A stretch of DNA of 64,000 nucleotides from positions 40,453,032 through 40,517,031 of the forward strand of contig JASCQW010000032.1 of NCBI GenBank assembly GCA_030264375.1. Reading direction: 5' to 3'. The notes below the pieces were generated by a model. That model did not search any database. It saw only the letters and a program-made list of their open reading frames with translations, and had not been told where the DNA came from. This DNA comes from Carcharhinus longimanus. Taxonomy: Eukaryota. Below are positions 5,351 through 57,032 of this stretch, piece by piece; the stretch's first letter is position 1; the number at the start of each line of letters is the position of its first letter. A program made the translations under genes and the position numbers.

Positions 5351-6020
5351 CTGTGCAGACTCTGGAATGGCCAATGAATATCAACAAAATCACTGCTAAA
5401 CAGCACAGGAGGAATGTTATTTTGGGTCCCCCGGTTTACAGTGTGCTCATGATGGCAATGCAGGTCCTGTATGCACTGATGCCCCTGTGGAACATACTCG
5501 CTAATACTGTAGGTACACAACTGCCTCACTGCTCTGGCTGCTTCGCTTTCAGAAACCGCAACTCAGTAGTCAGCCAGCTGGGAAGGTCGTTGTCTGCCGT
5601 TTACAGTTACCGCTTTCGCGGGCAACACGTCTCTGCTGGAAAATGATTTTTTTTTGGGGGGGGGTAAAAAAATGTAGAGGGCACACAGATCGGGCAAAAA
5701 AGATAACATGCGGATTAATATATTCAGCACACTCTCATTACAATTAGGCGGGCCGCATCACAGAAAACATGAAATACGTGCGCCACTCAACTGAACAGAA
5801 ATGAAGCTGGCCCGGTTACAGCACAGCAATTAGATTTTAGAACACAACAAGGTGAGATTGGTTTCAAGGTCAAGACATAGTCAAAAATGAGGAGAATAAG
5901 CCAGAGGACTGAAAGGCTAAGGTTAGAATGAAGATTAGGGATTATTTTTCATTGGGTCTTTCTGTAAATCTTGTTGAATCTGCGTGGCTCTGTCAATCTG
6001 TCTGTCTTCAGCTTATATTT

Positions 6021-6052
6021 ACACACACACTCATACACACACACACATATAT
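6021..6052. repeat. (CA)n/(TA)n microsatellite
   Basis: acacacacactcatacacacacacacatatat. Confidence 0.8.
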
Positions 6053-53821: not shown

Positions 53822-54344
53822 CTAAATGCCTTGGGATGCCGGCTATTGCAGGGTTGAGCGCTCCTCCTGTAAACGGTGCTTCGCAGTACTGAGAATGGCT
53901 AAAGGCAGCCATGCCCTGATTGTTGGGATCTGTCTGGTCAGGTGCAGCCCGGGGATATTCTAAAGGCCAATGTTGGTAAATTGGGCAGTTTGTAGGGTAT
54001 TCACTTCTGGTGCACAGGTTGTGCCGGTAGCTAGTAAACGAAGATATATGACTGTCATTTCGAAACTGGTTTGTTGGGAATTGTTCTGCCGCAGGTGACA
54101 TAGCAACTGTCTCCCGATCTGCGCTTCCGAACGATCCATAAGTCGAAATATCTTCGGAGTACAAACCTTGGCACTTTCCACTTGAAGTGGTTTTCAAAGG
54201 CGGTGGGACTATTGCCGAAGAAATGCCACAGTTAGTGGGGAGTACTGGTGCCATTTCCGTAGGCCGCACTTCATCTTGCAGTATTCCTGTTTTATCGCTA
54301 GATGTCTCTAACGTCAGTTTGTACTGCAGGGAAGTCGCATCCAT
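53822..54344 (-). CDS. hoxd14: HoxD14 exon 1
   Basis: Long ATG-initiated ORF (MDATSLQYKL...YQHWPL...) in the expected position. The best phase-1 donor is AG|GTCAGT at 53821, giving a 795-nt CDS (264 aa). A much weaker phase-1 donor at 53776 is the alternative. Confidence 0.8.
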
Positions 54345-57032
54345 CTTATAACTTCACTAAATGATTGTGTTCAATCCAGCCACCTGCAAATATAATCCCT
54401 CTGCTATTTTTCTGTCGTTACTTGCCAGCGTAAATTTCTCTTTGTTCCAAACGTTGAGAATGATATGCGTGGCAGGCACTGAGCAAATACTTTAACTACC
54501 ACCACCCAGAAATGGAACTAAACGATCCATTAAGTGCACAAACTACACCCTGGTCCAAACTACCTGATCTTTTTATTGCTGTAACTCAACTGCAGTTGGT
54601 AAATAAAACGCAGTGTGGACTCTTTGCAAATTAAACTTTGTGAGCAAACGTCAAGGACAGGGTTGCATTACAGAATGACACACTTGGACTGTAGTTATTG
54701 TACTGTTGACTCAAGGTCAATGTTGAGTTTCTGCGATAATTTTGTGTCACCTTACTCTTTCGGTTTTTCTTTGCCTGACGTTCCCCCGGTGATCTCAGGT
54801 GACACTATTTGATTGCAGGGCACTTAGATTTATAAACGTACCTTTTTTTTTAGAAAAACTCAAGCAACAGAATTGAACAATCGTTTAGTAGGATCGTGAG
54901 CTGTGATCTGGAATAAACCTCTTTCGTGACATTGCAACTTGCGTCAGGCAAAAAGCATTTAAGGACATTTTATTGCCTGCTATAACCCTTAACGCTCTAG
55001 AATTACACCTCGAGGTACCTGCATTAGACGATCGAACAAATATTTAGTCTGTTGCGGTGAACCTTCTTTGAGCTGGCTAAAGTGGACTACCGCTGCGTCC
55101 AGAAATCTGGTGCACCGTACTTATTAATTTTAACCAGCTTTGCTGACTAATTGAAACTATCCCTTCACACAGTGTTAAAGACAATTAAAATGTAAATGAC
55201 GGAGATCATGGATTTTGATATCATGCAACCTATTTTTCAAAAGAATGTCCTTGCCATTATCTTTTCTTTATATTGTGCTTAATACTCTTGCTCAGGTTCA
55301 TTAATCAGTATTATACCAATGTCAAAGAGAATTGATATAATCCTGCACACTATCGTCAGTTAACCATCAACCAGGCATACAAAGATTTTGCGTTCAGGAC
55401 CGAAAATGAAATTTCAGCAGGCTACAGGTTATGAGATAAATCTGATGAAAATGTTACATTCAGTGGACATTTTTGTCTCATCACTTGCCCTTTATAAAAA
55501 TGAAGATTTCAAGATATGCATATACACCTGTTTTGACAATGGCACAAGAAGTCAATTGTTAGTTAGCCAACTAACTTCTCACCCGTAAAATAGGAAAACA
55601 AGATTCCAGTGGTTCAGTTTTATTGGGAAAATAAATACAAAAAAGCAGACTTTTCAAATTATGTCGACGTAAAATCAGTGATCAATAAAAAAAGGTAACT
55701 CATATGAACAGCAGATGTTTTAATTTGGTTTCCCAAATAGTGCGGTACATCCAAAAGCCGCTGGCTCTCAGAGAAATTAACTTTTCGGAGCCTCTCTGAA
55801 AGTAATGCGGCTGTTAAAATCAAAGTAAACAGATGAGGGCGCCAGAGGACAGATATTTCGAGCGAGTGCATTTAATTTCGAGTCTGTTCATCTTTGTTTA
55901 TGTAACAACTCCACTCAAAGATTACTGCAAAGCTTCGCAATTAATTCATCGTAACATTCATTCATTTTGATTGGCGGGCTGCAGGTAATATTATCAAACA
56001 AGGTTCAAAATAAAGCATGAATAACATCTTAGCGTCAATCTCTGAAAAATGCTTGTTTTGCAGAAATGTTGTGCTGTATTTCGTACCAGATACATCAGTT
56101 TTTTTTAGTATTCTTTTGAGGTAACNNNNNNNNNNNNNNNNNNNNNNNNNNNNNNNNNNNNNNNNNNNNNNNNNNNNNNNNNNNNNNNNNNNNNNNNNNN
56201 NNNNNNNNNNNNNNNNNNNNNNNNNAACGGTCCGAGCATACGAGCTGTTTCGAGAACGCGAAAAGTTTGTTACGTTTGCCAACCAAGGAGACACATTTGC
56301 TAACTTGTGCTCAAATCATTTCCCACATTGTAAAAAAAACGTTCGTCGCCTACGCCAGCAATTTAAATAAACTATTTATGATCTCTTCCAACTTGTATTA
56401 ATTTTTTATTAGGAAACAATAACATTAAAATGGTGTCTTCTAGCACTTTACAGAATCCGCCGTTGTTACACGAAATCCTGTGGGAAGAAAACATAATTTT
56501 TGCATTGCAAGTTTTAATGTAATATTTTAATACATTTTCTTAACCATAATTAGAATTAGTCTATTATGTCTTTCCATGAATCGTCGGAGTATTATTGCCC
56601 TTTTCCATTGCCCTTGTTTTAGACATTTATTGTCCAGTGATTTGCCTAAGTGCAGAAATGGGCGTAAATGCAAGCGGTACGAATATGAAAACGGATTGTC
56701 GATTATAATCTGGGAACAAATACTGCGAATATAAGACAAGGGCCTTGCAGCTTTTATTCCATTGGCATAGGGTGCAGGGTACTAATTAAAACATTTAGCA
56801 GCAGTGATATAGGTTCCGCTTATGCATTATTTAATATAAATTATGATTCTCGGACGGTTTTGTTACATTGTCATCTCCCATAAGGGGATCTCGGTAGAAA
56901 CTATCCTGTGATAGTCACACTGCAGATCAGTTACGCTTTAAATTAACATTTCACGCGTGTATTTCGCAACTTAGGTCATGGCTTTCGCTTCTCCTCGGTA
57001 AACATTGATTTCGAAAACCAAAGTAACTACGG

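Follow-up and report, generated by a model that had tools for sequence, protein, structure and literature searches.

Candidate NR6A1 sites in three paralogous blocks with nuclear-receptor-type motifs, two of them flanking Hox13, in the Hox clusters of Carcharhinus longimanus

One of the described systems closest to the elements reported here is the composite of direct repeats with no spacer (DR0) and with a 1-bp spacer (DR1) in the Oct4 (Pou5f1) promoter, which is bound by NR6A1, COUP-TF, RAR/RXR, ESRRB, and NR5A2 and is repressed by NR6A1 (PMC4446430, PMC10909835). Genetic work in mouse has also placed Nr6a1 and Gdf11 in the timing of Hox expression: loss of Nr6a1 raised the response to GDF11 more for 5′ genes and freed Hoxb13, the most NR6A1-sensitive gene, in the absence of GDF11, and putative Nr6a1 sites from chromatin immunoprecipitation (ChIP) were reported in all four clusters, with no positions stated and the mechanism left open in the available parts of the paper (Chang 2022, PMC9755267). 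Direct control of posterior Hox genes by NR6A1 is posed as an open question both there and in a 2024 review. The 64-kb window analyzed here (the whole stretch of DNA under study, G000:C32:40453032-40517031) is from a cartilaginous fish, Carcharhinus longimanus, and holds its posterior HoxD cluster; Hoxd8 to Hoxd14 are minus-strand genes, and Evx2 is on the plus strand. Three blocks with AGGTCA-type half-sites, one on each side of Hoxd13 and one at the position of Region IX, below Hoxd11, recur in HoxA and HoxB.

All three blocks showed above-null similarity to their counterparts, together with the same syntenic position and orientation; the shared position and orientation make descent from a single, pre-duplication cluster likely. 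The blocks are very probably nuclear-receptor elements under ancient constraint. We give a probability of roughly one half to a fuller reading, in which all three predate the duplications and the two around Hox13 are NR6A1-bound brakes that delay Hox13 to the trunk-to-tail transition. The predicted output is that of the mouse genetics, a posterior restraint strongest at the 5′ end. The candidate elements in the shark share the half-site, the DR0 geometry, and the receptor ambiguity of the Oct4 composite; unlike it, they are intergenic or upstream of Hox13, occur in pairs or triples, and are duplicated over three clusters.

The comparison covered 200-kb stretches centered on each of two other clusters, HoxA (on C132) and HoxB (on C154), plus 200 kb of HoxD flanks; genome-wide counts covered 2.68 Gb. 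A Hox13 homeodomain search of the genome recovered three Hox13 genes and no fourth. Both flanking elements are present at all three, antisense to the gene, with the 3′ sites 1.5-2.6 kb beyond the Hox13 stop. In HoxD, their parts are as follows.

40727-40838, plus strand: module 3′ of Hox13 with a CTCF motif, TATTCATGA, and a double TCAAGGTCAA, paralogous in HoxA and HoxB
40732-40745, plus strand: CTCF-type motif pointing to Hoxd13/Evx2, placed by alignment and guide match
40775-40783, plus strand: TATTCATGA, invariant across the HoxA, HoxB, and HoxD modules, with the CTCF motif on one side and the receptor sites on the other
40796-40830, plus strand: double TCAAGGTCAA, copies 25 bp apart
47062-47079, plus strand: element 5′ of Hox13, abutting half-sites AGTCCA AGGTCA AGGTGG, paralogous in HoxA and HoxB

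HoxD and HoxA aligned over 113 bp of the 3′ module (E = 9e-8), and the three-way alignment ran from a CTCF-type motif, through the invariant TATTCATGA, which is presumably POU-like, to GTCAAGGTCAA. The two TCAAGGTCAA copies are separated by 25 bp in HoxD and 26 bp in HoxA; HoxB has two overlapping copies that form a perfect DR0. The TCA extension and the next A are retained in all three modules, and four exact copies of the 9-mer TCAAGGTCA lie within the HoxA and HoxB modules. A composite pattern of the module had three matches genome-wide, all at Hox13 loci, and a pattern of two 10-mers occurred at four loci: HoxD and HoxA (both 3′ of Hox13), one tandem array, and one other place. The tandem array (G000:C112:53289464-53290175) has a 26-bp unit, with TCAAGGTCAA in each unit.

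The CTCF-type motif has the position, and the orientation toward Evx2, of the mouse Hoxd12/Hoxd13 boundary site. Guide g36, used to delete that site in mouse, found its best match (16/20) in the 264-kb HoxD region at 40732-40745; in the HoxA and HoxB regions, too, the module copy gave the best match (16/20), equaled once, by a HoxB coding stretch. On these matches the shark motif is likely the counterpart of the mouse site (PMC6613147). In mouse, that site, which is likely CBS6 of PMC10335938, is the first to face the Evx2 side and marks a boundary of topologically associating domains (TADs) and of histone H3 lysine 27 trimethylation; the available parts of the mouse paper make no mention of an adjoining TATTCATGA or double TCAAGGTCAA, and the deletion made there took 21 bp at the CTCF core only (PMC6613147). 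The spacings between gene anchors agreed to ~3% with those of the horn shark cluster in 7 of 7 intervals, so that published footprints could be placed by offset. The 3′ module maps onto footprint fp17, placed at 40630-40835; this footprint is recorded for species from human to horn shark and carries no assigned function (PMC3091776, supplement 1). For a relative that is 3.3% diverged over 39-47.9 kb, 40564-40920 is free of listed substitutions (P = 8e-6, rising to 6e-4 if two end differences went unlisted).

We rejected a location of the doublet in the 3′ untranslated region of Hoxd13: RNA-type contigs of two relatives (no listed source is on record as RNA) end at 41884 and 41867, ~1 kb short of the doublet, while the DNA run goes on. 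Where these contigs end is a weak hint that the doublet is intergenic. A general coupling of CTCF-like motifs with AAGGTCA was also rejected, since a scan with a crude CTCF consensus paired them within 150 bp in only 1/5 (HoxD), 1/8 (HoxA), and 1/16 (HoxB) cases, always at the 3′ module (P of 0.26-0.51).

The element 5′ of Hox13 was shared between HoxA and HoxB over 85 bp (E = 2e-18), and its HoxD core matched HoxB at 19/20 positions, above a shuffle maximum of 16 (0/150). Three abutting half-sites are present in the core of all three clusters, with CCA where TCAAGGTCA has TCA; in each, the upstream half-site has one mismatch (background of 0.14 each) and the downstream one has one or two. An 18-mer pattern of this element occurred only at the three Hox13 loci in the genome. 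Because the 18-mer and the 3′ composite pattern were built from the alignments, their Hox matches follow by construction, and only the other matches (0, 0, and 1 for three such patterns) are informative; a third alignment-derived pattern missed the HoxB copy because the HoxB spacer is 13. No horn shark footprint for the 5′ element appears in the table of PMC3091776. RNA-type contigs of two relatives run from ~46050 to beyond 47900, covering the element, and in one relative a junction that is GT-AG-type when read on the Hoxd13 strand links 46050 with 45464, which suggests that Hoxd13 has an extended upstream exon or leader (45464-47900) spanning the element. Enrichment of SMAD boxes in the two Hox13 elements was not convincing (1-3 per element versus 1.0-1.6 expected).

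The abutting half-sites bear on the proposal that these are monomeric ERR or NR5A elements, activating or tissue-specific inputs (in cloaca, gut, gonad, or fin) and not a trunk timer. The exact 9-mer TCAAGGTCA, the extended half-site such a monomer would use, closely resembles the monomer motif of ESRRB/NR5A2 (PMC4446430), and many copies have a weak upstream half-site. A monomer, however, needs neither the three abutting half-sites kept at the 5′ element nor the perfect DR0s of HoxB, and the unconstrained neighbors expected around a monomer site were not found at the 5′ elements and are less clear at the 3′ module; we consider this explanation improbable. DR0s are perfect at 39912 and at three HoxB sites, have one mismatch at 5861, 26636, 40793, and 47063, and have two at 40821 and 54711. 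Outside HoxD, perfect DR0s occur in HoxB, two of them flanking Hoxb13. When direct repeats with at most one mismatch were counted in HoxA and HoxB alone, with overlapping matches collapsed and segment borders of our own choosing, DR0 lay posteriorly and repeats with a 5-bp spacer (DR5) anteriorly (5/16 versus 17/5, P = 7e-4). With up to one mismatch allowed, none of the six exact TCAAGGTCA sites in the window belongs to a DR5 or a DR2, the spacings of classical retinoic acid response elements. Anterior DR5 retinoic acid elements are activating. They too are short receptor elements kept at the same position in several clusters, and we recovered the paralogous ones here as a positive control; the shark blocks differ in being DR0 or extended half-sites, posterior, and predicted to be repressive.

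The third block lies at the position of Region IX, near two further features.

26622-26665, minus strand: composite at the Region IX position, with a TGAACT half-site, TCAAGGTCA (26636-26644), and, on the opposite strand, a DR1-like element
26978-26997, plus strand: palindromic GTCTAGAC directly abutting AGTTCAAGGTTT, at the Region VIII position, ~340 bp from the composite
32494-32510, minus strand: AAGTTAAGGTCAAGTTA half-site array at the Region X position, placed by offset (fp20, Region X, is 32346-32700)

The Region IX block scored 38 and 44 against its paralogues, above null maxima of 29 and 32. These lie 2.5 kb past Hoxa11 in HoxA and upstream of Hoxb10 in HoxB, a cluster without Hox11. 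TTTGAACTTC and the opposite-strand DR1-like element are kept in all three clusters, and the HoxB counterpart is a perfect DR0. The GTCTAGAC palindrome, which we take to be SMAD-type, had no paralogue above the null in HoxA or HoxB, and none was found there for the Region X array. Mouse Region IX reportedly binds RAR and COUP-TF in vitro and silences Hoxd11, as Gerard is said to have shown in 1996, and a Gdf11/Smad-activated Hoxd11 enhancer was reportedly described by Gaunt in 2013. Footprint fp26, for Regions VIII and IX, is listed from human to horn shark (PMC3091776) and falls at 26546-27050 when measured from the Hoxd11 stop; the other anchor, across an assembly gap, gives 26806-27310. As in mouse Region VIII/IX, half-sites are present, with 26636 and the palindrome inside fp26 by offset (PMC3091776); unlike the mouse record, counterparts were found here in HoxA and in the Hox11-less HoxB, and the match to the mouse region was made by offset. 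Three GTCTAGAC palindromes occur in the window, at 12315 (the edge of the Hoxd9 intron), 26978 (Region VIII), and 51930 (between Hoxd13 and Hoxd14); GTCTAGACA ranks 3rd to 7th among window 9-mers, partly from double counting of the palindrome. Eight base pairs from the Region X array, GGCGCCCCCAGTAT (32518-32531) resembles a CTCF site or a GC box and is below our crude CTCF threshold.

Region IX also bears on another explanation, that COUP-TF or unliganded or nonactivating RAR-RXR silences posterior Hox genes through DR0 or DR1 where retinoic acid is active, with NR6A1 acting indirectly or sharing the sites. DR0 is an established binding site of COUP-TFs and of RAR/RXR (PMC4446430), the DR1-like core is present at Region IX in all three clusters, even in HoxA, which has lost TCAAGGTCA, and several of the 3′ sites can be read as DR1 with one or two mismatches in the second half. 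The retention of the TCA extension and the next A at the 3′ module argues against it. A weak further point is that, among the first rows listed from the Chatagnon 2015 peak table, none is an RAR/RXR peak on chr2 at the mouse coordinates as estimated here. We regard silencing by COUP-TF or RAR-RXR as rather unlikely for the elements as a whole, and Region IX itself is likely a mixed COUP-TF/RAR/NR6A1 site.

DNA-binding domains of the receptor types in question are encoded in the genome, including COUP-TF-like, RXR-like, ERR-like, and NR5A-like ones. An NR6A1 gene, called for by the prediction made from the window before this analysis (here the original prediction), was found through a DNA-binding domain at G000:C148:20077236 that is identical to PDB 5KRB at 71/72 residues; an NR5A-like domain lies ~200 kb away. 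The sites that NR6A1 prefers are DR0 and the extended half-site, and its described role is that of a repressor (PMC10909835), although a later paper suggests that it may promote some genes as well (PMC12957460). Whether NR6A1 is the main repressor at these elements we would put at about even odds.

The original prediction was of a cluster-wide array of TCAAGGTCA sites as a direct NR6A1 control system. Its six exact sites are where it placed them (5864, 39915, 40796, 40821, and 54711 on the plus strand and 26636 on the minus strand); five of the six are on the plus strand and followed by A, none lies inside a coding exon, and they do concentrate around Hoxd13. Every variant it named is also present, the 17-mer given as near 32499 being 32494-32510; it missed variants at 5187, 30237, 32661, 36230, 36425 (coding), and 57692, as well as the proximity of 40796/40821 to the boundary CTCF counterpart and the location of 26636 and 32494 in Regions IX and X. 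The enrichment that it expected was found, with six sites versus a mean of 0.48 in shuffled windows (0/100 shuffles reached 6) and a single site in ~133 kb of HoxD flanks. Genome-wide there are 25,703 sites, or 0.61 per 64 kb, which gives a Poisson P(≥6) of 6e-5, or 6e-4 if the 40796/40821 pair is one event; the 10-mer TCAAGGTCAA occurs five times versus 0.18 expected. Among 43,410 window 9-mers (Markov orders 2-4), TCAAGGTCA ranks 3rd to 4th and the overlapping CAAGGTCAA ranks 2nd. The surroundings of Hoxa13 and Hoxb13 hold six exact sites (four events) in 47.5 kb versus 0.49 expected (P = 2e-3 for events). A single cluster-wide array is not supported in the form predicted. Counterparts exist only for 26636, 40796/40821, and the variant at 47066; the motif had none at 54711, and no paralogue above the null was found in HoxA or HoxB for 5864, 39915, 1019, 41111, or 47430. 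One-mismatch variants were at chance level (21 nonexact matches versus ~16 expected). In comparisons of site intervals with paralogues, 9/27 exceeded the maximum of 40 shuffles, and seven of the nine came from the three blocks; the other two were the bases beside 54711 (33 versus 32) and a motif-free block at 55017. The uniform array thus reduces to three ancient elements, by which the open question becomes directly testable.

Several points weigh against NR6A1-bound brakes. TCAAGGTCA fails a Bonferroni correction across all 9-mers (0.28-3.2), and ~2.7 genome tiles of 64 kb are expected to reach six sites by chance, so the count alone is no proof and independent support is needed; the scarcity of the 9-mer in the anterior halves is not significant (1 versus 1.75). 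Taken alone, the excess of DR0 in the posterior halves is modest (P = 0.03 in HoxA and HoxB), and repeats with a 4-bp spacer are skewed in the same direction (3 versus 10). At the 3′ module, four of six copies have two mismatches in the upstream half, so that most are extended half-sites and not clean DR0s; the HoxB doublet by itself aligns below the null (28 versus 33), and fp17, just 34-104 bp long in mammals, may comprise nothing more than the CTCF site. The HoxA match to the 5′ element is marginal (26 versus 25, with 28 on the opposite strand), and HoxA Region IX lost TCAAGGTCA yet kept the DR1-like part, while HoxD and HoxB keep TCAAGGTCA. COUP-TFs, RAR/RXR, ESRRB, and NR5A2 also read DR0 or DR0-like DNA (PMC4446430). 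In mouse, loss of Nr6a1 alone fails to activate most posterior Hox genes in vitro, and in the available parts of the paper the authors leave open whether its action is direct or indirect (PMC9755267); the 21-bp deletion of the boundary CTCF site transiently derepresses Hoxd12 and Hoxd13 in kidney (PMC6613147).

Some of these points would also fit blocks conserved for CTCF anchoring, for another factor, or for an overlapping transcript, with AGGTCA incidental and the count a chance peak. The count would then be one of the few such tiles expected genome-wide, the CTCF motif accounts for part of the 3′ block, and the 5′ element lies within a transcribed stretch spliced toward Hoxd13 in two relatives. 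However, the invariant columns among paralogues include the AGGTCA cores, 55-120 bp off the CTCF motif, and the sites are replicated in HoxA and HoxB. Repeats cover none of the window sites, though they cover some flank sites, and Rfam had no match in the window, so that we rejected both a repeat and an RNA-family origin. We consider a merely incidental AGGTCA unlikely.

If NR6A1 is the receptor, its dimers would flank Hox13 during trunk elongation, next to the boundary CTCF site on one side, and would recruit corepressors to these places. Rising GDF11 would then clear NR6A1 and activate through SMAD sites, thereby releasing Hox11-13. A wider extrapolation, which we hold to be doubtful, is that the ancestral vertebrate cluster had a dedicated NR6A1 clamp on Hox13 (an upstream DR0 array plus an array welded to the TAD-boundary CTCF site) and a SMAD-versus-receptor switch at Region VIII/IX; posterior and repressive, it would mirror the retinoic acid elements of the anterior clusters, and it would be the direct cis target through which NR6A1 dose determines the length of the trunk and the number of vertebrae in every jawed vertebrate.

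A 100-kb question is narrowed here to three elements of 20-110 bp, one of them tied through the CTCF guide to a mouse coordinate (mm10 chr2:74,673,167 for the CTCF site), which lets ChIP look-ups and point mutations be targeted. If NR6A1-bound brakes are real, the timing of Hox13, and with it the end of axis extension, rests on a receptor-bound brake that predates the genome duplications and is coupled to a chromatin boundary, and CTCF-based models of the Hox timer become linked with NR6A1/GDF11 genetics of vertebral number. Should another receptor bind, the elements would remain ancient posterior nuclear-receptor inputs, undescribed in the accessible literature searched. The genetics of NR6A1 and Hox genes, the conservation of CTCF sites between paralogous clusters, fp17 as a footprint, and Regions VIII-X are already known, and the blocks may be listed in a survey of paralogous Hox noncoding elements; a full-text literature search, outside of which most subscription papers lie, returned no paper that puts NR6A1 sites or DR0s on each flank of Hox13 or next to the CTCF site at the boundary.

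The window sites outside the three blocks are likely lineage-specific additions or chance occurrences; they are given here with the neighboring genes.

5864-5872, plus strand: exact 9-mer, 514 bp ahead of the Hoxd8 start codon, no paralogue above the null
39912-39923, plus strand: perfect DR0 AGTTCAAGGTCA, the sole one in the window, without a paralogue
54711-54719, plus strand: exact 9-mer, 367 bp ahead of the Hoxd14 start codon, no copy of the motif found in the paralogues
28240-29632, minus strand: Hoxd11 coding region
36265-37855, minus strand: Hoxd12 coding region
43394-44675, minus strand: Hoxd13 coding region, with an intron at 43644-43986
52674-54344, minus strand: Hoxd14, 3′ end approximate

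The DR0 at 39912 is the same in the 3.3%-diverged relative, a comparison too short, at 12 bp, to be informative; the contig of the most distant relative begins at 39909, so that end differences near 39912 are unlisted. The position of 39915 is roughly compatible with Region XI, for which the table of PMC3091776 has no shark entry. The bases beside 54711 have a marginal 18/19 match in HoxB; Region XII was rejected as the home of this site, since it maps to 55800-57120. A perfect TCAAGTTCAAGGTCA stands ~8 kb upstream of Hoxb13 (G000:C154:4219850), and no HoxD counterpart of it was found. Homeobox matches outside the three clusters, on small contigs (G000:C16652:1359-1547 and C32666:23-199), are possibly HoxC remnants or ParaHox genes. 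No Evx1 match was present in the 60 kb upstream of Hoxa13 (G000:C132:92470001-92530000), a stretch with assembly gaps. Two short interspersed repeat fragments (16670-16911 and 50359-50453) lie in the otherwise repeat-poor cluster. The motif-free block upstream of Hoxd14 (55017-55050) has a paralogue ~10 kb upstream of Hoxa13 (G000:C132:92520970, 83 bp, E = 5e-5) and is perhaps a relic of the Hox14 upstream region. Further noncoding blocks without AGGTCA have paralogues in HoxA or HoxB (582-732, 3184-3278, 5705-5786, 20236-20265, and 29727-29832); the first of these, at 582-732, is common to all three clusters and occupies the place expected for Hoxd7.

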